Assembly (NCBI GenBank): GCA_964625225.1
Contig: CAZVAR010000004.1
Location: 353-64,352 of the forward strand
DNA: 64,000 nucleotides
Source: an uncultured Alphaproteobacteria bacterium
GTDB taxonomy: Bacteria > Pseudomonadota > Alphaproteobacteria > JAJUGE01
Direction of reading: 5' to 3'
Made by a program: the position numbers and the translations under genes. Below, piece after piece: positions 3,867 through 14,323 of the stretch. Position 1 is the first letter of the stretch. The number at the start of each line of letters is the position of its first letter. The notes beneath the pieces were generated by a model. The model saw only the letters and a list, made by a program, of their open reading frames with translations. It did no database searches and had not been told where the DNA came from.

Positions 3867-4466
3867 TGGCAGCACTCCCCTCTTGGTCCGATTACGTCCT
3901 GTCGGCCGTCGGCCAACAGCATTGAAGATTTCCCAAGAATGACTTGTGCACACATCGGTCGCAACCGTCTTTACCAGCTGCAGGGAGCGGCGCGACTAAA
4001 GGGTTACGCTACCATCGACGACGATGCACGCTCGAGGCGTAAGCCGATTCTTCCGTTTCGGTAGCCCTGATAACCCGCCGATCCGATGCCGCCCTGGACA
4101 CTCGACCGGGCAGTCCGGACAGAGCGACGTCCGTTACGGAGATGTTCGCGACCGATCCGTCGCCGGTACGACCGACGCGAAGGCATAAGCGACCGTTACA
4201 TGCCCCTTGCACTCAGGTCGAAGGACAGGTTCCGGTGACGTTCCCTGTCGCCAGAGATCGAGGCGTGACGGATAATGCCGGCGAACGGCGGTACCTGCCG
4301 GTTCCGTCGGCCTGACCTCTCCATCTCCGTAGCGATGACCTCCCGTTGCCGGCGGCCAGGACGACGCCGTCGAACAGCCTGTCTCCTGGGGCGCGACAGG
4401 GACGGAGGTGCGTTTCCGGCGGGCCGGCGACGGGGCCCCCATTCGGGCCGTGGCCCTGTTCGACCT

Positions 4467-6248
4467 TCAGTGTGAGTGCCGCGGCACCGCTTCGCGCACG
4501 CGCCGGTATTTCGCTGCGAGCTCGAGACAGCCACCGGTGGCGAGTTGCCCGACTGTGTCGCGATAGAGCTCCTGCCACGGTGTCTGGTGTTCGAGTTCCG
4601 GAGGGCGGTACTCGCGTCGCCGCTGAGCGATCTCCTCGTCCGAAGCCAGCAGGTCCACCCGGCCAGCATTGAGGTCGATGCGTACCCGGTCGCCCGTACG
4701 CAGGATGGCGAGGCCGCCGCCGATCGCCGCCTCCGGTGAGGCATTGAGGATCGACGGACTGGCCGAGGTGCCGCTCTGCCGACCGTCCCCGATGCACGGC
4801 AGAGCGGCGATGCCACGCTTCACCAGCGCATCGGGAGGCAGCATGTTCACCACCTCTGCCGAACCGGGATAGCCGATCGGCCCACAGCCGCGGATGAACA
4901 GGATGCAATCTTCGTCGATCTCGAGCGCGGGATCATTGATCCGCGCGTGATAGTCTTCGGGTCCATCGAACACCACGGCGCGCCCTTCGAATACGCCCTC
5001 TCGACCGGGTTGCAAGAGGTAGCGGCGGCGGAACTCCGCGCCGATGACCGACGTCTTCATCACCGCGGCATCGAAAAGGTTGCCGGTCATTACCATGAAC
5101 CCCGCGCTCTTCATCAGCGGGCGATCGTATGGGCGAATCACCTCCGGATCGGCCGGTTGCGCATCCCGATTGTTCTCACCGATGGTACGGCCGGTGACGG
5201 TGAGGGCATGTTCACGGATCCGGCCGCCGCGCATCAGCTCCCAGATAACGCCCGGTACGCCTCCTGCGCGAAAGAAGGCCTCGCCGAGAAACCGCCCCGC
5301 CGGCTGACAATCCACAAGAAGCGGAACGTCGAAGCCGATGTCCTGCCAGGCCTCGATCGGCAGTTCGACTCCTGCATGACGGGCGACAGCATTGACGTGG
5401 ATCGGGCAGTTGCTGGAACCGCCGATCGCCGAACAGACCGCAATGGCGTTGTCGAACGCATCCCGCGTCAGGATCCGCGACGGCGTGAGGTCTTCCCACA
5501 CCATCTCGACGATACGTCGCCCGGTCGCGTAAGCCATCTGGGTACGCTCGCGATAAGGGGCAGGAATCGCGGCACAGCCCGGCAATGCCATGCCGAGCGC
5601 CTCCGCGAGGCAGTTCATCGAAAGCGCCGTACCCATCGTGTTGCAGTGTCCGATGCTCGGTGCAGACGCCGTTACGATCTCCATGAAACGCTCGTAGTCG
5701 ATCTCACCCGCGGCGAGCATCCGTCGCGCTTCCCATACCGCGGTGCCGGAGCCGGCAAGGCGGCCGCGCCAATGCCCGTCCAGCATCGGTCCCCCGGACA
5801 GAACGATGGCGGGGAGGTCCACCGTAGCCGCCGCGGTCAGGCAGGCGGGGACGGTCTTGTCGCAGCCGGTCGTCAGCACGACACCGTCCAGCGGATAGCC
5901 GTGCAGAATCTCCACCAGGCCCAGATAGGCGAGATTGCGGTCGAGCGCCGCCGTCGGACGCTTGCCGGTCTCCTGAAGCGGATGGACCGGGAACTCTATG
6001 GGGATGCCGCCGGCGTCACGGATGCCCGCACGGACCCGCTCGGCGAGCTGGAGATGGTGGCGGTTGCAGGGGGCAAGGTCGCTGCCGGTCTGGGCGATGC
6101 CGATAATCGGACGCCCCGATTGAAGTTCGTCGCGGGTCAACCCGAAATTCAGGTAGCGCTCGATATAGAGCGCCGTCATGCCCGGGTCGCGCGGGTCGTC
6201 GAACCAGAGGCGGCTACGCAGTTCGGTGCCCTTGTGTGGGTCGCGCAT
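4467..6248 (-). CDS. IlvD/Edd-family dehydratase (sugar-acid dehydratase-like)
   Basis: The 593-aa protein shows IlvD/Edd signatures: CNRHH, TTGCDKTVPACL, GHCNTMGTALSMN, and CIGDGRQSGTS near the C-terminus. Its length and N-terminus resemble xylonate/arabinonate-type members rather than the IlvD of branched-chain amino-acid synthesis (inference). Confidence 0.8.
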   Translation of the reverse strand: MRDPHKGTELRSRLWFDDPRDPGMTALYIERYLNFGLTRDELQSGRPIIGIAQTGSDLAPCNRHHLQLAERVRAGIRDAGGIPIEFPVHPLQETGKRPTAALDRNLAYLGLVEILHGYPLDGVVLTTGCDKTVPACLTAAATVDLPAIVLSGGPMLDGHWRGRLAGSGTAVWEARRMLAAGEIDYERFMEIVTASAPSIGHCNTMGTALSMNCLAEALGMALPGCAAIPAPYRERTQMAYATGRRIVEMVWEDLTPSRILTRDAFDNAIAVCSAIGGSSNCPIHVNAVARHAGVELPIEAWQDIGFDVPLLVDCQPAGRFLGEAFFRAGGVPGVIWELMRGGRIREHALTVTGRTIGENNRDAQPADPEVIRPYDRPLMKSAGFMVMTGNLFDAAVMKTSVIGAEFRRRYLLQPGREGVFEGRAVVFDGPEDYHARINDPALEIDEDCILFIRGCGPIGYPGSAEVVNMLPPDALVKRGIAALPCIGDGRQSGTSASPSILNASPEAAIGGGLAILRTGDRVRIDLNAGRVDLLASDEEIAQRRREYRPPELEHQTPWQELYRDTVGQLATGGCLELAAKYRRVREAVPRHSH

Positions 6249-6264
6249 CGCGCCTCTCCCTTTT

Positions 6265-7350
6265 TTACCCCAGGATGGTTTTGATCCTCCCGTCGTCCAG
6301 GCCCACCGCGCGGGCGGTCGCCAGGATCGACGCCCAGGCGTCGTCGGGAAGCGGGATGCCCTCGGCCAGGCGCTTCGCCCGGCTCCGCTGTTCGGGTTCT
6401 CCAGGTACCAGCACTTCGCCGCCCGGCTCCGCCGGCCGCGCCGACTTCACGAAGGCGATATAGTTCCGCATCTCTTCGGGGAAGAAGCCGGCCGGATCGA
6501 ACAGATCGGGCGCGATATAGATGGACAGCATGCCGTTGGCGAAAGGCCGCGGCGGCGGGCCCGCCGTACCGTTGCCGGTGAAGGCGCCGCCGAGCAGTTC
6601 ACACATCAGCGCAAGCCCGGATCCTTTGTGTTCGCCCATGGCGCGGATGGCGCCACGGTTCTCCCGCTTATCGGGCGGCACGTCGGGGCCGGTATCGCCA
6701 TAGAGGGTGGCCGGGTCATTGGTCATGCGGCCGTCAGGCTCGATCAAGCTGTGCGGCGGAATCGGCTTGCCGCCCTTGGCCGCCACGAGCACCTTCCCCT
6801 CCGCAACCACGGCCGTCGCGAAATCGAGGATCAGCGGCGCTTCTTCCGATCGCGGCAGGCCGACGCAGAACGGCGCAGTGGAGAATCGCTTTTCCGTTCC
6901 GCCGAACGGTGCGACCAGGATGCTACCGGCCGCATTGACGAAATGGATCGAAACGAGTCCGGCCTCGGCCGCCATTTCGGCCCAGTCACCCACCCGGCCG
7001 ACATGCCCGGCATTGCGCAACGTGATCACCGCCACGCCGTTTGCGGCCGCCTTGTCGATACCGAGTTGCACCGCCTGCGGAGCGACCGTCTGGCCGAACC
7101 CGAACCTGCCGTCGACAACTGCCATGACGGGCGTTTCGGTGATGATCTCGATCGTGCGATCGGCCAAGACGTGACCGTCGCGCATCATTTGGATGTAGCG
7201 TGGGACACGTACCACGCCGTGGCTGTCGTGACCCACGAGATTAGCCGAAACGAGATATCGGCCGATCCGTTCCGCTTCCGCCTCGGAACAACCGGCATGG
7301 CGAAAGATCGCGGTCACGAGATCGCGCAGGGCGTCCGCCCGGATCAGCAT
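6265..7350 (-). CDS. Ldh2-family (malate/L-lactate dehydrogenase 2-type) NAD(P)H oxidoreductase
   Basis: The 361-aa protein has N-terminal ...LVSANLVGHDSHGVVRVPRYI... and a mid-region GEHKGSGLALMCELL, both typical of the Ldh_2 family. It begins 16 nt downstream of the dehydratase stop, so the two are probably one operon. Confidence 0.8.
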   Translation of the reverse strand: MLIRADALRDLVTAIFRHAGCSEAEAERIGRYLVSANLVGHDSHGVVRVPRYIQMMRDGHVLADRTIEIITETPVMAVVDGRFGFGQTVAPQAVQLGIDKAAANGVAVITLRNAGHVGRVGDWAEMAAEAGLVSIHFVNAAGSILVAPFGGTEKRFSTAPFCVGLPRSEEAPLILDFATAVVAEGKVLVAAKGGKPIPPHSLIEPDGRMTNDPATLYGDTGPDVPPDKRENRGAIRAMGEHKGSGLALMCELLGGAFTGNGTAGPPPRPFANGMLSIYIAPDLFDPAGFFPEEMRNYIAFVKSARPAEPGGEVLVPGEPEQRSRAKRLAEGIPLPDDAWASILATARAVGLDDGRIKTILG

Positions 7351-7502
7351 GATGTCGGTCCTCCGCCGATCCGCGCCGTGATTCGCACGCTCAACGCTTC
7401 CCTCCCGAGTCCTTCCTGCGACCTGTACTTCGTCGCGGACGCGTGTCGGCGAGATGATAGGCGGACACCGTGGTAATGAACAGCGATCTTGCGCAGCTCG
7501 AA

Positions 7503-7760
7503 TTACCAGAGAGTCTCGGCGTAGTGACGTTCACCGCTCACCATTGCCCGGAACAGACGGGCGGCGTCGTCGCGCGAGCGCCATCCACGAGGGCCGATCA
7601 CGGCCGCTATGCCCGCTGGGGAATCCTCTGCCTCCGCGCTGTGCTGCGGGTCAAGCGAATAGACCCGTCCAGCGCGCGCCTCGATCACGGCGAAGCGGCC
7701 TCTACCGTTGCCGATCAGCCTGTAGGATTCCTTCTCGGCGATCACCTGAATGCCGGCCAT
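7503..7760 (-). CDS. Hypothetical small protein (85 aa)
   Basis: This is the internal ATG of ORF 7503..7964: MAGIQVIAEKESYRLIGNGRGRFAVIEARAGRVYSLDPQHSAE... The composition is non-repetitive, unlike the Arg/Cys/Gly-rich upstream extension. It lies downstream of, and codirectional with, the methyltransferase. I recognised no family. Confidence 0.4.
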   Translation of the reverse strand: MAGIQVIAEKESYRLIGNGRGRFAVIEARAGRVYSLDPQHSAEAEDSPAGIAAVIGPRGWRSRDDAARLFRAMVSGERHYAETLW

Positions 7761-7864
7761 GATGTGCTCCCGAAGGCGACACGGTGCGAGCGTACAGCAC
7801 GACTTTGAACGAGCGTCTCCCTTCGCCAGTTCCTCTGGGCAGCCAGGATCCGGTCGCGGTCCGG

Positions 7865-8872
7865 TCAGGCGGGCTTGCGGCCAGCCACTCGCACCAGAAC
7901 ACCCGGCACAAAGTCGGTCGTCGTCACATCCCGGAAGCCCGCATCGGTCATGTATTCCACGCACTCGGTGACCGAATGGGCCAGCCCCGTAGAGGCATTT
8001 AAGGTTTGCGCCAGCCCCCAGAGCGCAGCATCCGCCGGCCCGCTCCGTGTGGAATCGAGAGCCTCCCCGATCAAGTGCATCTCGCCGCCGGGCAGGAGTG
8101 CCTCGAACGCCTTCCGCACCACGGCCCGGATCTGTTCCCGGCCATACATCGGCAGGTTACTGGCCATCAGTATTACATCGGCGCCGACCGGCAAGGGATC
8201 CTTGTTGAAATCGCCCGGCACTGCCTCGATACGGTCGGAGAGATCGTTCTCCTTGATGAACTCGCGAGCCACATCGGCAACGGCCGGAAGATCGAACACG
8301 GTCGCCCGCAACTGCGGGTGATGTTGGCACGCGACGATACAGTAGGCGCCGGATCCGCCGCCGACATCCAGTAAGCTCCGTCGGTTGGACAGGTCGACCT
8401 GCCGGACGAACCTGCGTCCGGCGCCGAGCCCGATGCTGTAGGTCGCCCGGTGATAACGCTGCGCCTCCGCGGCGGTGATGTTTGCGACTGACTTGTTGTC
8501 GGCGAGTGGCGGTCCCGGCCGGCGCAGGTGCTCGACGAGCCGGCCCCACTCGTTCCAGTCGGGCTTGGTGAACAGCAACCAGGGGCCCGCATAATTGGGT
8601 TCGCCTTCGATCAGGAAGCGCGCGACGTCGGGCGCCGGCCGCAGGCGTTCGCCATCGCGCTCGATCAGCCCCAGGCCAATACAGGCGATCACGATCCGCT
8701 CGCCGTTCGGCGGCGCGAGGCCAAGGGCATCGATCAGCTTCGCCTCGGTGTCGGCGCCACGGGCGAGCTTGGTAAAAAGTCCGAGTTCGACCGCAGCCAT
8801 TAACGTCGCCGACTCGCGATAGGCGCGAGCCATCCGTTGCAGCCGGAACGTGGTGGGGCGATGTTCGGTCAT
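7865..8872 (-). CDS. Class I SAM-dependent O-methyltransferase (Methyltransf_2-like, with N-terminal dimerisation/winged-helix region)
   Basis: The 335-aa protein has the SAM-binding motif LLDVGGGSGAYCI and a later acidic loop TVFDLP. The overall layout resembles CrtF/BchU/plant-type O-methyltransferases. Confidence 0.75.
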   Translation of the reverse strand: MTEHRPTTFRLQRMARAYRESATLMAAVELGLFTKLARGADTEAKLIDALGLAPPNGERIVIACIGLGLIERDGERLRPAPDVARFLIEGEPNYAGPWLLFTKPDWNEWGRLVEHLRRPGPPLADNKSVANITAAEAQRYHRATYSIGLGAGRRFVRQVDLSNRRSLLDVGGGSGAYCIVACQHHPQLRATVFDLPAVADVAREFIKENDLSDRIEAVPGDFNKDPLPVGADVILMASNLPMYGREQIRAVVRKAFEALLPGGEMHLIGEALDSTRSGPADAALWGLAQTLNASTGLAHSVTECVEYMTDAGFRDVTTTDFVPGVLVRVAGRKPA

Positions 8873-8884
8873 TGCGGTAGACTT

Positions 8885-9673
8885 TCAGCCGTAGCTTCGC
8901 GACATGCCTTCGGCCGGATCCATGTGGGCGCCGTAGGGCGGGATTGGATAGCGAAGGCCGACCCGGGCCAAACCTTCCAGCCCCTGGATCCCGCGGGCGA
9001 ACTCCTCCGGTGGCAGCGCGATCAGCATCTCGTCGTCGGCAACGCCGCCATAGCGGCGCTCGGCATAACAGGGGATGGAGATCGAAGTTTCCCGCGTTAG
9101 CAACGCCTTGCCCCAGGAATCTGCACAGGCGCTCTCGCCGGTGATCGACATGTCATAGCGCTTGTAGCGTTTCCATTGCAGGCCGTTTACGAACAGAATG
9201 ATCTGCCCCGGCGTGCCGTAGAACAGCACGATGTCCGGTGGGTCCAGCCGGCCCGAGCGGAGCGGCGACACTACGGTTGCTACGTACTTGCCGTAAGTCT
9301 GGCGCGGCATCTGCTGCTGATGCGCGTGTGCGGCCTCTTGGTTCTCGAACCAGACGCCGTTCATCCGCTCGCCCGACAACGTCGGTTCGTCCGGCAAGTC
9401 GATCCCCAGAACGCCGCCGCAATTGGAGTTCGGGCGCACGTTCTCGGTGGTAATTCCGAGCGTGAAGCCGGCCATGCGCGCCTGTGTCACCAATTGGCAG
9501 GTTGTATGGAACCGTCCCGGCTTGGGTCGGCGCAGCCCGGGCACCCTTTCCATCTCCTCGACGGTCTCGAACTGCTTCATGCCGATCGGCAGCGTCCGGA
9601 TCTTCAGAAGATCGTGCAGCTTCGCCGCCAATTCCTTGAGCTCGGTCGCGCTTACGGTCTTCCCGTCGTTCAT
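8885..9673 (-). CDS. DUF169-domain protein (COG2043-like, function unknown)
   Basis: The 262-aa protein begins ...LKIRTLPIGMKQFETVEEMERVPGLRRPK....FHTTCQLVTQARMAGFTLGIT..., a pattern I associate with DUF169. It ends 12 nt upstream of the methyltransferase start. Confidence 0.6.
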   Translation of the reverse strand: MNDGKTVSATELKELAAKLHDLLKIRTLPIGMKQFETVEEMERVPGLRRPKPGRFHTTCQLVTQARMAGFTLGITTENVRPNSNCGGVLGIDLPDEPTLSGERMNGVWFENQEAAHAHQQQMPRQTYGKYVATVVSPLRSGRLDPPDIVLFYGTPGQIILFVNGLQWKRYKRYDMSITGESACADSWGKALLTRETSISIPCYAERRYGGVADDEMLIALPPEEFARGIQGLEGLARVGLRYPIPPYGAHMDPAEGMSRSYG

Positions 9674-9854
9674 TTCTTGCTCCTCGGGCGGATCTCCAGC
9701 GCCAACTATAGCGGCAATCCGGAAGCAGCGCCCATCGTTCCGTCAGCTTTCACTGACCCGCGCGACCTGCGGTGCGGTAGGTGCTGCAACCCGGTTGCGA
9801 TGTAGCTCGGCCTCGCATAGGTTCTGACCGTAGCACCGGAGCGGAATGCACCAT

Positions 9855-10163
9855 GCGGACGTGGCGAAACCGGTAGACGCAGCAGACTTCATTGGAGTGC
9901 CCGCGGGGAAACCCACGGCGTAGAACCGCTCAAACTCGGGGAAAGCTACCGGCATGGCCCAAGCCAATCCCGAGCCAAGCCCCGTTCGGGGAAGGTGTAG
10001 AGACTAGACGGGCGGCGCCTAAGGCTCCCGGGCTATGGCGAAGGGATAGTCCAGACCACGAACGTCACGGGCGGAAGGGCCCGGGGCGGCGGCGAAAGCC
10101 GAAGTGGTACGAAAATCTGCTTCCCCTCGGGGAGTGCGGGTTCGAGTCCCGCCGTCCGCACCA
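9855..10163 (+). tRNA. trnL-UAA: tRNA-Leu(UAA), split gene with exons 9855..9889 and 10112..10163 (CCA encoded)
   Basis: Joined exons fold as a class II tRNA. The acceptor stem is GCGGACG/CGTCCGC. The D-arm is GCGAAACCGGTAGACGC. The anticodon stem is GCAGA/TCTGC with loop C-U-U-A-A-A-A (anticodon UAA). The long variable arm is TTCCCCTCGGGGAGT. The T-arm is GCGGG-TTCGAGT-CCCGC, followed by discriminator A and CCA. The gene is interrupted between U34 and A35. Confidence 0.93.
9890..10111 (+). ncRNA. Group I self-splicing intron (cyanobacterial/plastid trnL-type, IC3-like), 222 nt, with no internal ORF
   Basis: It is inserted after U34 of the anticodon. P1 can form between the exon end ACUU|C (9886-9890) and GGAGU (9894-9898), giving the canonical U.G pair at the 5' splice site. 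The intron ends in G (10111). The core strings GCTCAAACTCGGGGAAA, CAATCCCGAGCCAAGCC, GGAAGGTGTAGAGACTAGACGGG and GATAGTCCA closely parallel what I recall of the Anabaena trnL intron core (CUCAAACUCAGGGAAAC, CAAUCCUGAGCCAAGCC, GGAAGGUGCAGAGACUCGACGGG, AGAGUCCA). Confidence 0.88.
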
Positions 10164-10573
10164 AAATCCCGATCTTCTAGACACTACAAGCCTTGCGAAT
10201 CTCGCGGGCGAAGCGAAATCGGCTGCGCGCACCGACGGCGCGTCCTGCCTTGTCAGAGCGGTTGCCGCCGGATGCCGTCGTTCGCCGACTGAAGCCCGGT
10301 CTCATGTCCGATGCCAGATCCGTCCGACATCAGCCGAGCAGAAGACATCGATAGTCCGGCCGCGGCGGTAATACACCATAGATCACATATCTAAAGGTAA
10401 TTCCGGTTGTATCGAAAGTGCGTGTGCGCAAAGTTGCATAAATATATATCAATTTGAAGAAAGTTTGTAAGAAATGATCGATAAAAGGTCTGCAGCTCGG
10501 CTTGAATACTGTACGGCGCCGCACTAAGGTCATAGCGACCCTCGTGTAACATTAGCGGTATTGCAATCAAACA

Positions 10574-10855
10574 ATGCAAATATCCGGACGAAAGCTCCTG
10601 GAAGCTGCAAAACGTGTTGGACGGCAGCAGGCCAAAGGTGAAGGTGGCACCGGAGAGGGCCTCCGCGGGTTAACCGATGCGCAGATCCTCGAACTGATCG
10701 CGGCCGATGCCGAGAGCCGAAAGCAGGCTCATCGCGAGCGGATGCGCCGCTACTATCAAGAGCGTGTCGCCCGTATGGCCCAGGGCAAGGTCGTGGCCAG
10801 TCCGCCAAAGAGCCGACCCCGTAAGGCGAGCCGGCGGACACCGGGCTCCACTTGA
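10574..10855 (+). CDS. Orphan small basic protein (93 aa), doubtful
   Basis: The ORF starts at the edge of an AT-rich patch: MQISGRKLLEAAKRVGRQQAKGEGG...RMRRYYQERVARMAQGK... It has noticeably more A/T-ending codons than neighbouring genes and no obvious Shine-Dalgarno sequence upstream. I recognised no family. Confidence 0.3.
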   Translation: MQISGRKLLEAAKRVGRQQAKGEGGTGEGLRGLTDAQILELIAADAESRKQAHRERMRRYYQERVARMAQGKVVASPPKSRPRKASRRTPGST

Positions 10856-11156
10856 GCGGTCTGTAACGTCCCAACGCGGGTGGCTGTGACCGCAGTCGCC
10901 ATTCTGCCGCGCCCGATCCGATAGCTGGCGTAGAGCGCTGCTGTCGGACGGGCGATCAAGGAAGGTACTGTTGTCGCGACGCCGGGCGGCCGTGGCCGGC
11001 GTTCGCGGCAGCGGCCTTGCCGGCCGTCCGTGGATTGCGGGAGGACGGACGTTCAGGGAGCGTTGGCGTCCCCGGGCGCTGCCGGCGCGACGGTGCGCAT
11101 CGACCGTATCGCGGTCATGCCGGCGGTCGATGGTCCGCCACTATCGGGCGGCGGCC

Positions 11157-12317
11157 CTAATTGACGTTGGTGGGTGCCGCCGGCACACCCGCAGCCGGCT
11201 TCTCCTGGGAGTTGGTCTCGACGGGCTGGGTTAGGTCTTCAATACGGCTGCGGAGCTTCCCCGTCTTGAAGTCCGTAAGGCGATAGGCCCAGCCTGACGT
11301 CCGGGCATTGATGGTCTCGGCTTCGGCAGCGACCTCTTCGACCGTCTTGAACAGGTCGGCCGTCCGGCCCTCGGCCGAATCCTTGCCCGCATTGGCGGAA
11401 ACGAAGCTGGCCGCCTCCGGGTGCGGCTCGACCGTGTCTGCCTTCACCCGGACCCACATTGTGCCCTCGTCCTCGGTCGCGTCCATTATCAGGCGGAGCC
11501 CGTCATAGCTGACAAACTCACCGGTGACCGCAGGTGTCGCGAAATCCAGTTCGGAAGCGGGACGGACATCTTCCAGGATCAGGAAATCGGTGATGCTCGG
11601 CAAGGCAGAAAGGTCGTAGGCCGGCTTCGGTTGACGCTCCTCCGGGATCGGCGACCGCAGGCTGTAGTCGCCGGGCGCCGGTTGGTCCTTCGCCACCACG
11701 ACGCGCTCGCCATCGGCATGGGTGATCGTGACCGTCCAGATGCGTCGCTGGTCTACATTGACGATGTTGCGGTCGAGCCAAGAGACGAGCTGTCTGTCCG
11801 GCCGCAGCTCCCCTTCGGCAAGCCAAGCTTGTTCCTCGCCGACGCGCCGCACGAACAGACCGCCACCTTCGCCGGTCGGACGTGCGCGACCGATGATCAC
11901 ATCGGCCAGTAACTCGTCGCCGGCATGCACGGTTACCTGTACCGACTTCGCGTCGGGCGCATCGACATCCTCGACCTGTAACTTGCTGTAAAGTTCCGGT
12001 TTCGTCGTGCGCCGTTCGACCGTTTCGATTCGGGCGAGGTTGAGCAACATCCGGCGGAGCTTTTCGAAATCGACCGGGTAGCCGGCCTTGTCCGGCATCA
12101 CCCACCGATCGTCGGTGCGCTCCAAATTCACCGAGCTTTCGGCGCTGCGAATGGTCACCCGCGTCACCGCATTCACGCGGTCGAGCAGGCCCGGAACGAA
12201 GACCTGCCGGGCCGGGCCCGCCTGGCCGGCCTCCTGCCGCTGCTGGATGGCGATGCCGGCACCGGCAATGGCTAGGACCGCAACTCCGACCAGGGCGATG
12301 AAGGTGTTTCTGCGCAT
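11157..12317 (-). CDS. DUF4340-domain protein (last gene of the GldG-type ABC operon)
   Basis: The 386-aa protein has an N-terminal membrane anchor (MRRNTFIALVGVAVLAIAGAGIAI) and then a soluble domain. Its position directly after a GldG-like gene is the usual DUF4340 context. Confidence 0.65.
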   Translation of the reverse strand: MRRNTFIALVGVAVLAIAGAGIAIQQRQEAGQAGPARQVFVPGLLDRVNAVTRVTIRSAESSVNLERTDDRWVMPDKAGYPVDFEKLRRMLLNLARIETVERRTTKPELYSKLQVEDVDAPDAKSVQVTVHAGDELLADVIIGRARPTGEGGGLFVRRVGEEQAWLAEGELRPDRQLVSWLDRNIVNVDQRRIWTVTITHADGERVVVAKDQPAPGDYSLRSPIPEERQPKPAYDLSALPSITDFLILEDVRPASELDFATPAVTGEFVSYDGLRLIMDATEDEGTMWVRVKADTVEPHPEAASFVSANAGKDSAEGRTADLFKTVEEVAAEAETINARTSGWAYRLTDFKTGKLRSRIEDLTQPVETNSQEKPAAGVPAAPTNVN

Positions 12318-12346
12318 TTCCGCTCCTTTGCGGCCATCCGCTTCGC

Positions 12347-14323
12347 TCAGGCCGCCCGCGGCCGGCGACGATATCCGCGGCGAATCATGGCGAGCACAAC
12401 CGCGACGACCGCCACCAGCAACGGAATCAGGCCGATATTGATCGCCTCGATCCAGTTGGAGAGATTCTCGACGTCCTGGCGCAGCGCGTGCTGCACATCG
12501 CGGAGTTCGCGCCGGATGCGGACCGTCTCCGCCCGAAAGTTCTCGATCGCCTCCCTCTGCTCGTCCGTCAGCACGACACCTTCGGCGCCTTCGCTCGGAC
12601 CCTGCAGCTCGGCGAGCTTCTGTTCGGTGGATCGGAGCGCTGCCAGCAGTTCCTGCTCCTTGGCACGGAAACGCTGTTCCGCCTCACGCTGAATCGCCTG
12701 CACCTTCGTGAACGGACGCTGGTAGACGCCGCGGCTGCGCAGCCCGATCAATTCGTTGCTGCCGGTCAGGTTCTCGACTGCGTTGATCAAGAAGGCGCCA
12801 TTATGGGCATAGGGCATCGCGATGCGTTGTCCGAAGAAGTCTTGGACACGCACCCAGAGCCCGTCGGCCAGCATGTCGACGTCGGCGACGACGATCATGT
12901 TGACCGGTGCCGTGGATTCGGCCAGATGCTCCGGCCCGGCCGCCTCGGTCGGCGTGTCTGCAGGAGTGGCCGCATCCTGCCTGTCCTGCGTCTCACCCCC
13001 GCCCTCGTCATCGGCCTTCGGCGGGCCGTCGGGGAAGGCACTCTGGACGGTCCCGTGCAGGCGTGCCGCCAGCACCAGGGGTTCGCCGGTGTTCTTGAAG
13101 CTGGTGAGGGCCTTGACGGGATTCGCCGTCCCCTGGACCAGAGCCACGTCAACCGTACCCGCGCCCCGGTCACTGGTCACCAGAAGCGGATTCATCTCGA
13201 TCGTCGCGCCCTCCTTTTTCCGGAGGAAGCCGGGCGAGGCAAGATTGACCTGACCGAGCTGGCTGACGACCGGATCGTCCTGATCGAAATGGTCGCGAGT
13301 GAGCGCGAGCCAGAGCGGGTAGTCGACCGCGGCGACGCGCGTGCCGTCTTGGCCCTCAGTCGGCACCTGCACGCGGCGTGCCGCCGTAAGGTCGCCCGCG
13401 ACCTTGTCGGCCGGCATCTCGACACCCCAGGCGCCGAGCAGCTTCTCGAGGTTGGAACCGTAATCGCCCATGCCGAGGGGCATGCCCGGCTGCGGCATTG
13501 CCGCATCCGCTTCGGAGTGCGGGTCGATAAAGACCAAAAGCTGCCCGCCACGCATCACGAACTGGTCGATCGCGTAGAGCATGCTGTCGGCGAGGTTTTT
13601 CGGATGGACCAGGACCAGCAGCTTCACCGATTCCGGGATGCTGTCGCCCGAGGCCGAGATCGTCTCTACCTCGAAGGACTGCCGGAGCTGGTTGTAGACG
13701 ATCCATGAATCGTCGGTGCCGGCGCGGCGGGCGTAGGGTGTGCCGGCCATCGGTAGCGAGGTGATGAGGCCGACGACCGGCTTCTCCAGGGTGGCGAGGT
13801 CGTGAATGATCCGCGTCAGGTCGTACTCCAGCAGGTTCTCCCGCGACTGGTCGAAGAAGGGGATCACCTCGCGCTCGTCGACGCTGTTGGTGGCGGCGAG
13901 CCCGAAATAGACCAGCTCACCGCCCTGATCGACCGGTACGCCCTGCAAGCCGTAGGCGACGGCGCGGTCTTCCGCCTCCGAGAATGGTTCGGGGTCATAG
14001 ACTTCGAGGCGCACCTTGCCGTTGGAGCGATTGGCATACTCCTCGAGCAGGTCACGGACCCGCTGGGCATAGAGGCCCACCGACGGGATTTCGCGCCCGA
14101 GCCGCTCGGAGAAGTAGAAGCGCAGCGTGATCGGCTCGTCGAGCTGGTTCAGGACGGAGAGCGAGCCTTCCGAAAGCGTGAACAGCTTCTCCTCGGTCAG
14201 ATCGACCCGAGCCGTCTTGAGGAACGTGTTCGAGACGATCAGCACTGCCGCGAAGAGCACGGCAATGAGAACGAGGCTCAGCCCCGAATAGATCCTGCGT
14301 TGCCGGATGCGCGAGGCGTCCAT
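12347..14323 (-). CDS. GldG-family ABC-transporter auxiliary protein (ABC_transp_aux)
   Basis: The 658-aa protein has N- and C-terminal TM segments (…LSLVLIAVLFAAVLIV…, …GLIPLLVAVVAVVLAMI…). It shows the start typical of GldG-like proteins, DLTEEKLFTLSEGSLSVLNQLDEPITLRFYFS. It follows the ABC-2 permease by 4 nt. Confidence 0.75.
   Translation of the reverse strand: MDASRIRQRRIYSGLSLVLIAVLFAAVLIVSNTFLKTARVDLTEEKLFTLSEGSLSVLNQLDEPITLRFYFSERLGREIPSVGLYAQRVRDLLEEYANRSNGKVRLEVYDPEPFSEAEDRAVAYGLQGVPVDQGGELVYFGLAATNSVDEREVIPFFDQSRENLLEYDLTRIIHDLATLEKPVVGLITSLPMAGTPYARRAGTDDSWIVYNQLRQSFEVETISASGDSIPESVKLLVLVHPKNLADSMLYAIDQFVMRGGQLLVFIDPHSEADAAMPQPGMPLGMGDYGSNLEKLLGAWGVEMPADKVAGDLTAARRVQVPTEGQDGTRVAAVDYPLWLALTRDHFDQDDPVVSQLGQVNLASPGFLRKKEGATIEMNPLLVTSDRGAGTVDVALVQGTANPVKALTSFKNTGEPLVLAARLHGTVQSAFPDGPPKADDEGGGETQDRQDAATPADTPTEAAGPEHLAESTAPVNMIVVADVDMLADGLWVRVQDFFGQRIAMPYAHNGAFLINAVENLTGSNELIGLRSRGVYQRPFTKVQAIQREAEQRFRAKEQELLAALRSTEQKLAELQGPSEGAEGVVLTDEQREAIENFRAETVRIRRELRDVQHALRQDVENLSNWIEAINIGLIPLLVAVVAVVLAMIRRGYRRRPRAA

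Follow-up and report, generated by a model that had tools for sequence, protein, structure and literature searches.

A tRNA-Leu(UAA) gene split by an IC3-type group I intron in an uncultured alphaproteobacterium is a member of a widespread bacterial class

In this study, we analysed a window of 64,000 nucleotides (nt) from contig CAZVAR010000004.1 of an uncultured Alphaproteobacteria bacterium, which carries a gene for the transfer RNA (tRNA) tRNA-Leu(UAA) split by a group I intron. When stretches 9855-9889 and 10112-10163 were joined, the resulting 87 nt were assigned by ARAGORN to tRNA-Leu(taa), and the deduced mature tRNA of class II forms a perfect cloverleaf with a 7-bp acceptor stem, a long variable arm, discriminator A73, and an encoded CCA. 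Since CUU precedes the 222-nt intron (9890-10111) and its terminal G is followed by AAAA, the intron sits between U34 and A35, i.e., after the third and before the fourth nucleotide of the anticodon loop (CUU/AAAA), which is the position of class Leu.3Ug. An open reading frame (ORF) at 9892-10371 that overlaps the intron had no Pfam match, and the GC content of the intron was 0.662 compared to 0.667 for the window. The gene is composed as follows:

9855..9889, plus strand: 5' exon of tRNA-Leu(UAA), with acceptor stem, D arm, 5' half of the anticodon stem, and C32 U33 U34
9890..10111, plus strand: group I intron, IC3-like, without an ORF of its own, based on Rfam, covariation, and conserved columns
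10112..10163, plus strand: 3' exon of tRNA-Leu(UAA), beginning with A35 A36 A37 A38 and the 3' anticodon stem, the remainder comprising the long variable arm, T arm, acceptor stem, A73, and CCA

BLAST comparison of the window with 115 places in other genomes resulted in aligned stretches that ran from 9854/9855 to 10163, i.e., the tRNA boundaries only, so the split arrangement is not due to chance. In all 111 genes that could be resolved by the genome scan described below, including that of the window, CTT stands before the intron and a terminal G directly before AAAA, extended to AAAATC in every case. The first-pass annotation, made from the sequence of the window, had given exactly these exon coordinates and had placed the insert at the classical site between U34 and A35, and both statements hold; the site is shared by the 110 other genes.

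For analysis of the intron structure, 57 diverse members of the family, including the window copy, were aligned (alignment A1). RNAalifold revealed the tRNA anticodon stem together with helices P1, P2, P3, P4, P5, P6, P8, P9, P9a, and P9b, while two spurious local hairpins were replaced by the P7 pairing G(A)GACUA/UAGUCC, which is pseudoknotted with P3. Altogether, 13 helices with 64 pairs (3,636 cells) were counted, of which 96.7% of the cells were standard pairs, compared to 84.1% in shuffles and 29-45% when partners were slid by 1-3 columns. Changes on both sides were detected in 40 of the 64 pairs (23.9 expected), the covariation score reached 0.357 (control 0.132), and none of 500 shuffles matched any of the observed measures. 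The intron folds as a complete IC3-type group I intron from P1 to P9, as the first-pass annotation had proposed to check, and displays the conserved group I core, namely the P4-P6 stack, the P3-P7-P8 domain, and the P3/P7 pseudoknot. Its elements in the window are:

9886-9890 / 9894-9898, plus strand: P1, with A9886-U9898, C9887-G9897, U9888-A9896, U9889.G9895, and C9890-G9894
9901-9907 / 9912-9918, plus strand: P2 hairpin, CCGCGGG / CCCACGG with one C.A mismatch, closed by a GAAA tetraloop (9908-9911)
9926-9931, plus strand: P3 5' strand, CCGCUC, partner 10010-10015
9935-9941 / 9968-9974, plus strand: P4, 100% paired, with J4/5 = AAA
9945-9947 / 9962-9964, plus strand: P5, 100% paired, carrying a terminal extension
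9980-9983 / 9988-9991, plus strand: P6 hairpin, CCCC GUUC GGGG, with compensatory change in 4/5 pairs
10000-10006, plus strand: P7 5' strand, G(A)GACUA with bulged A10001, partner 10047-10052
10010-10015, plus strand: P3 3' strand, GGGCGG
10016-10019 / 10037-10040 and 10024-10026 / 10031-10033, plus strand: P8, based on pairing and covariation
10047-10052, plus strand: P7 3' strand, UAGUCC, with J8/7 AAGGGA just before it
10055-10108, plus strand: three-way P9 domain, with P9 at 10055-10059 / 10104-10108
10064-10087, plus strand: P9a, a variable hairpin, all pairs with compensatory changes
10090-10093 / 10098-10101, plus strand: P9b with GAAA cap (10094-10097), all pairs with compensatory changes
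10111, plus strand: omega G, the terminal G directly before the 3' splice site

P1 was paired in 99.6% of cases across the alignment, and the wobble U9889.G9895 at the 5' splice site was U.G in 57/57 homologues; the U.G pair and the terminal G proposed from the sequence at first reading were both confirmed. The P1 loop of the window copy (AUU, 3 nt) is the shortest in the family and this short form is shared by few other genomes; among the loci compared (numbered L), L208 revealed the same P1, CATTGGAGTG, and L205 an equally short loop. Compensatory changes were found in 9/10 pairs of P2 and in 4/6 pairs of P3, e.g., U-A in 29 and C-G in 28 sequences, with P3 being 99.7% paired. The six pairs of P7 were formed in 57/57 sequences and never varied; G10002-C10051 is presumed to bind guanosine, as the corresponding pair does in solved group I introns. 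P8 holds CCUAAG (10018-10023) and UAUGG (10034-10038), which we take, from what is established for the Azoarcus intron, to be the 11-nt GAAA-tetraloop receptor. In the structure of the Azoarcus intron, L2 docks into this P8 receptor.

To search for related genes, 185,579 species-representative genomes were scanned with the pattern AGAGACTAGACGG N{20,50} AGTCC N{35,65} GAAAATC, consisting of the P7 core, the P7 3' strand, and the first bases of the 3' exon, which yielded at least 120 loci. A bare IC3 pattern (GGTGYAGAGACTNGACGG...AGTCC) had been too unspecific for a genome scan, and the 3' exon AAAATC was added and the core variant fixed; with this fixed core, cyanobacterial GCAGAGACUC-type introns and P7 variants, e.g., the plasmid copy described below, were beyond the reach of the pattern. 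A strict rule (exact complement of the anticodon stem and CTT before the intron, terminal G and AAAATC after it) led to tRNA-Leu(taa) for 91 loci among the matches listed, and a brute-force search for the 5' splice site resolved 19 further loci, while five ran over the locus edge and five others could not be resolved. Thus, among 120 matches listed, the same split tRNA-Leu(UAA) was identified in at least 110 species genomes, namely 72 Alphaproteobacteria, 22 Acidobacteriota, five Burkholderiales, four Gammaproteobacteria, six unclassified Pseudomonadota, and one member of the Binatia. The Alphaproteobacteria include Bradyrhizobium, Rhizobium, Sphingomonas, Caulobacter, Brevundimonas, Paracoccus, Azospirillum, Reyranella, and Acidocella. 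Among the matches listed, introns were between 194 and 316 nt long (median 227 nt), so the compactness seen at first reading is real, and the 222 nt of the window copy are typical of the family.

In regard to previous knowledge, a search of 80,413 bacterial genomes had already led to 5,292 tRNA genes split by group I introns in 21 insertion settings; Leu.3Ug is one of four classical classes with together 3,453 introns, while the 72 Leu.3Cg introns were confined to Proteobacteria (Williams 2020, bioRxiv 10.1101/2020.01.27.920355). Even earlier, tRNA-Leu(TAA) seemed to be missing in 14 Burkholderia species until intron-containing genes were found in all 14 (tRNADB-CE 2008, PMC2686568), which suggests that the split gene is the sole one for this anticodon there. 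The locus is therefore an ordinary member of a widespread and already catalogued class with thousands of members. The expectation that tRNA introns outside cyanobacteria are limited to tRNA-Arg(CCU) and tRNA-Ile(CAU), on which the initial surprise at this locus was based, does not stand; it reflects the view of a 2014 review, in which bacterial tRNA introns were described as largely cyanobacterial and as few in alpha- and beta-proteobacteria (PMC4033280).

Two side observations were made in the course of these scans. The bare IC3 core pattern matched more than 120 viral contigs of IMG/VR (L001-L120 listed), so that closely related group I cores appear to be common in phage genomes. In the gammaproteobacterium Carnimonas nigrificans (L159), direct repeats of clustered regularly interspaced short palindromic repeats (CRISPR; RF01317) at 3956-4104 and 5577-5752 and several ordinary tRNA genes were located within 1-2 kb of the intron-containing tRNA-Leu gene.

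Detection of such genes with routine tools proved to be difficult. Default ARAGORN on the whole window resulted in no tRNAs, and an Rfam scan of the window at gathering thresholds in no matches. The intron mode of ARAGORN, recommended as a check in the first-pass annotation, located the split gene and set the intron off by one base, labelling it tRNA-Phe(gaa); with homologues, mixed Leu, Phe, Ser, and Cys labels were obtained from the shifted intron boundary. Therefore, boundaries were set by the rule for group I introns, with U preceding and G closing the intron, and ARAGORN was rerun on the joined exons. A permissive Rfam scan of 9700-10300 (601 nt) revealed Intron_gpI (RF00028) at 9880-10071 over the full model length with 40.2 bits (E = 8e-9), and as this score lies under the Rfam gathering score of 50, the default scan was silent. 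Of 18 clear homologous loci, only four reached the gathering score, while 14 (L177, L225, L208, L230, L205, L140, L157, L131, L133, L228, L176, L150, L135, and L210) fell below, so the score of the window copy is typical of the class and routine annotation under-detects it. The Rfam seed of Intron_gpI holds no bacterial sequence (Williams 2020, bioRxiv 10.1101/2020.01.27.920355), and tRNAscan-SE 2.0 is not designed for detecting group I introns that lie within tRNA genes (PMC8450103). The zero results of default ARAGORN and Rfam are false negatives for this class, and standard annotation will systematically miss split tRNA-Leu(UAA) genes. Since default ARAGORN, the Rfam gathering score, and tRNAscan-SE 2.0 all fail on the split gene, genomes of this kind will seem to be without tRNA-Leu(UAA) unless it is recognised.

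Several approaches were used to follow the descent of the intron. Across 110 genomes with GC contents between 0.46 and 0.72, intron GC followed that of the surrounding 8 kb (r = 0.72), which bears out the host-adapted composition suggested at the outset, and pairwise intron identity was correlated with exon identity (Mantel r = 0.57; 0/999 permutations as high). Among the matches listed, the best BLAST match of the window gene was L177 from an uncultured alphaproteobacterium (85%), followed by Caulobacteraceae, Phenylobacterium, Stellaceae, Aliidongia, and Azospirillum (82-85%), and the closest tRNA exons, 92-94% identical, were alphaproteobacterial as well. The nearest neighbour of the window intron was alphaproteobacterial in 200/200 bootstrap resamples. 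In a neighbour-joining tree of 111 introns and 13 reference introns (210 columns, without branch support), Burkholderiales formed one group and Acidobacteriota a few groups, while Sphingomonadales and Caulobacterales clustered mostly by order and some genera, e.g., Bradyrhizobium, were split. These patterns agree with a long stay of the intron and a descent that was mainly vertical along with the tRNA gene, accompanied by occasional exchange. The intron has been in its lineage long enough to take on the GC content of the host and co-diverges with the tRNA gene; as it carries no ORF, it does not count among the mobile elements driven by an endonuclease. The most likely history is inheritance together with its gene inside the Alphaproteobacteria.

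For comparison with known tRNA introns, we used 13 reference sequences from the Williams 2020 seed alignment, one of them cyanobacterial (Sel1.Leu.3Ug). Identity to the window intron was 81-83% for Ncf2.Leu.3Ug, 79% for Mti5.Thr.3Ug, 77% for Rur1.Arg.5Ug, 74-75% for Rba190.Arg.3Ug, 69-72% for Bba346.Leu.3Cg, 62-67% for Aol6.Ile2.5Ug of the Azoarcus type, and 60-61%, the lowest of all 13, for the cyanobacterial Sel1.Leu.3Ug. Proteobacterial Leu.3Ug introns share with the window copy the tRNA, the site (CUU before, G and AAAA after the 3' end), the P1-P9 architecture, the L2 GAAA, and the three-way P9, and differ in nothing of substance, apart from the window copy having the shortest P1 loop and a P9a sequence of its own. 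Alphaproteobacterial tRNA-Arg(CCU) introns of the Agrobacterium type (Rur1.Arg.5Ug, Bbo3.Arg.5Ug) come from the same host class and display the same architecture with a three-way P9 and 67-77% identity, but are inserted after position 36, and their last P7 pair is G-C (GACUG/CAGUC) instead of A-U. The Azoarcus tRNA-Ile(CAU) intron is the structurally solved model ribozyme of the IC3 type. Its J6/7-P7-J7/3 block, AAGGUGUAGAGACUAGACGG, is identical to that of the window intron, with which it also shares the CCUAAG/UAUGG receptor in P8 and the L2 GAAA; at about 205 nt compared to 222 nt, it is inserted after position 36 of tRNA-Ile2 and has a simple P9 hairpin rather than a three-way domain.

The cyanobacterial Sel1.Leu.3Ug has in common with the window intron the tRNA, the U34/A35 site, the U.G at the 5' splice site, the terminal G, the IC3 core, J8/7-P7 (AAGGGAUAGUCC), and a P9 domain with a GAAA-capped hairpin. 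In contrast, it is AT-rich where the window intron is GC-rich, its P8 reads CCCUAAC...GAGGGUA instead of containing the CCUAAG/UAUGG receptor, and its J6/7 region is GCAGAGAC instead of GUAGAGAC. As identity to this sole cyanobacterial reference is only about 60%, the designation "cyanobacterial/plastid-type" given by the first-pass annotation is justified by the insertion site and not by the sequence, the P8 receptor being of the Azoarcus type. In the tree, the cyanobacterial reference was placed outside the proteobacterial Leu.3Ug group with the introns of fMet/Met, while two Arg.5Ug references and Thr.3Ug fell among the alphaproteobacterial Leu.3Ug introns and Arg.3Ug just outside. The window intron did not group with the cyanobacterial reference to the exclusion of other tRNA introns, a weak placement obtained with one cyanobacterial sequence, under strong GC bias, and without branch support.

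The position of the Arg and Thr references in this tree, which is without branch support, suggests that one intron lineage moved between tRNA genes. Carried further, the proteobacterial Leu.3Ug introns would go back to an IC3 intron of tRNA-Arg, tRNA-Thr, or tRNA-Ile that reverse-spliced after a U into tRNA-Leu(UAA) and then spread vertically with some transfer, sharing with the cyanobacterial intron the site alone. The 75-80% identity of the Arg.5Ug, Arg.3Ug, and Thr.3Ug references to the window intron, the grouping of Arg.5Ug and Thr.3Ug among Leu.3Ug introns with the cyanobacterial reference beside fMet/Met, and the 21 insertion settings already catalogued, which imply frequent changes of site, would agree with such an origin. 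However, it has to be weighed against an unbootstrapped tree of 210 columns in which GC content differs strongly between groups and cyanobacteria are represented by one sequence, against a core too conserved and peripheral stems too variable for firm placement, and against the need to explain independent arrival at an identical site in an identical tRNA, so that we regard it as a serious, on balance unlikely, account. Alternatively, a single insertion that predates Proteobacteria, Acidobacteriota, and Cyanobacteria might be the source of the Leu.3Ug introns in all three.

Boundaries of gene and intron, fold, purifying selection, and wide distribution are established by the analyses presented here. 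Based on these, we consider a functional tRNA-Leu(UAA) gene very likely, with a 222-nt group I intron of the small IC3 tRNA type (class Leu.3Ug) set into its anticodon loop between U34 and A35. The intron is probably self-splicing, with splicing chemistry, self-sufficiency in vivo, and tertiary contacts predicted from homology. Self-splicing of IC3 tRNA introns has been demonstrated experimentally for Anabaena tRNA-Leu and Azoarcus tRNA-Ile, in vitro and without protein. By this model, the pre-tRNA would be transcribed as a single RNA and the intron would fold to P1-P9 around the P3/P7 pseudoknot, probably braced by docking of the L2 GAAA in the 11-nt P8 receptor and of the L9b GAAA elsewhere in the core. 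Free guanosine bound in P7 would attack the phosphate behind U9889; the U9889.G9895 wobble marks this site. G10111 would then occupy the guanosine site and the freed 3'-OH of U34 would attack after G10111, so that the exons would be ligated and the anticodon loop CUUAAAA restored.

Some points weigh against a functional, self-splicing gene. The Rfam score lies below the gathering score, as described above, and neither a sigma-70-type promoter nor an intrinsic terminator was found within 9500-10500. The minimum-free-energy fold of the pre-tRNA was no more stable than that of shuffled sequence (z = -0.46), a measure that is uninformative for a GC-rich RNA and takes no account of the pseudoknot. 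P10 with the 3' exon would be weak because the extra G9894 parts UU from the GAGU guide. Furthermore, the case for this locus is drawn from sequence and homology, and a second, uninterrupted tRNA-Leu(UAA) gene may lie beyond the 64 kb in view.

The very short P1 loop and the weak P10 of the window's sub-clade could mean that splicing in vivo needs a host protein or RNA chaperone and that the intron is not self-sufficient. We consider this improbable, as the intron has its full set of core elements and the two peripheral contacts of the GAAA/receptor type, and the related Azoarcus and Anabaena introns manage in vitro without protein.

An inactivated tRNA-Leu gene whose intron no longer splices would be a decaying pseudogene, and one C.A mismatch in P2, one A.G non-pair in P9a, the low Rfam score, and a possible second tRNA-Leu(UAA) copy outside the 64 kb of genome in view could be seen in this light. 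However, 134 columns are conserved to at least 90% in the other 56 sequences, and the window copy deviated at none of them (family median 1, range 0-29), so the intron is not decaying, and its 2/64 non-standard pairs equal the family median, leaving 62/64 intact. Together with the perfect cloverleaf ending in CCA, this makes a pseudogene very unlikely; the gene is constrained in the same way as those of its relatives. It differs from a true relic such as that of L126, where a second copy stops after the P3 3' strand. This truncated copy (L126:~6120-6290, minus strand) comprises tRNA-Leu exon 1 and the 5' ~60% of the intron beside the full gene (L126:5516-5826, plus strand), is 88% identical to the window type compared to 73% to the resident full copy, and looks like a relic of locus replacement or of a second acquisition.

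Recent transfer from a cyanobacterium or plastid into a proteobacterial genome, to which the host tRNA and the insertion site of the classical cyanobacterial/plastid intron would correspond, is scarcely credible given that intron GC equals host GC (0.66 and 0.667), that the nearest relatives among the matches listed are all alphaproteobacterial (82-85%), and that among the 13 references the cyanobacterial-type one lies farthest away (about 60%) and has another P8 receptor motif.

A related copy was found on plasmids. In PLSDB, a distant BLAST with 9855-10163 detected 1,293 plasmid records with a full-length match at about 84% identity; E. coli contributed 493 of them, Klebsiella 365, Salmonella 117, and Acinetobacter 79, and conjugative plasmids made up 944. 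Two copies were chosen for closer inspection:

L241:6001-6299: plasmid copy, pCTX-M3, NC_004464.2 61823-62121
L242:3501-3799: chromosomal copy, E. coli AR_0013 chromosome

In pCTX-M3, the order is ISCfr1, DUF3883, two small ORFs, the match, an AAA ATPase, aac(3)-IId, and IS26, the AAA ATPase being tmrB of the resistance literature. The chromosome of E. coli AR_0013 displays the same arrangement and has no RNA feature annotated there, and no feature annotation was found under the match in the RefSeq E. coli rows inspected. Among 5,426 complete RefSeq E. coli genomes, 636 (~12%) contain copies that share at least 99% identity with one another. The plasmid copy harbors a 213-nt intron with 63/64 standard pairs, in which the last P7 pair has changed in a compensatory way from A-U to G-C, within an apparently intact tRNA-Leu(UAA); judged by its sequence, it is probably self-splicing. 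No paper linking a group I intron or tRNA gene with the aac(3)-IId/tmrB module was found in the searchable literature, which is no proof that the link is unreported.

The nearest genomic relatives of the plasmid copy among the matches listed were L177 and L230 (85-86%), which belong to the alphaproteobacterial sub-clade of the window. This hints at an alphaproteobacterial origin of part of the gentamicin-resistance module, and the sub-clade of the window, L177, L230 (Aliidongia), L123 (Stellaceae), and L208 may mark the donor lineage of the tRNA-bearing segment that is now mobilised together with the aac(3)-IId/tmrB module. No synteny was found between the proteins of the plasmid module and the loci listed or the window. 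Altogether, we put forward this donor reading, with the single Leu.3Ug insertion before the separation of the phyla as a second one, tentatively.

The tRNA-Leu gene of the window is flanked by genes that all lie on the minus strand (4467-14323):

4467-6248, minus strand: IlvD-family dehydratase
7865-8872, minus strand: BchU/CrtF-like O-methyltransferase
8885-9673, minus strand: DUF169 protein
11157-12317, minus strand: DUF4340 protein
12347-14323, minus strand: GldG-like ABC-transport auxiliary protein

Comparison of these flanks with the 120 loci listed revealed no synteny. The DUF169 and methyltransferase proteins matched only in Logan assemblies of sequencing runs, and the IlvD-family protein had no record in the contig index. 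The best plasmid-borne homologues of the latter were 68-71% identical and derived from a mixture of Burkholderiaceae, Acinetobacter, and Azospirillum. By these analyses, it is the relatives of the tRNA and the intron alone that place the host in the Alphaproteobacteria.

The value of the locus in the window is corrective, as it adds one more member to its class, and the plasmid copy may be the more interesting one: if it is expressed, an active group I ribozyme and one more tRNA-Leu(UAA) would be present in many clinical Enterobacteriaceae. The review-level view that assigns the trnL(UAA) intron to cyanobacteria and plastids no longer holds: it is common among Alphaproteobacteria and Acidobacteriota, and arguments on its age and mobility must include both.

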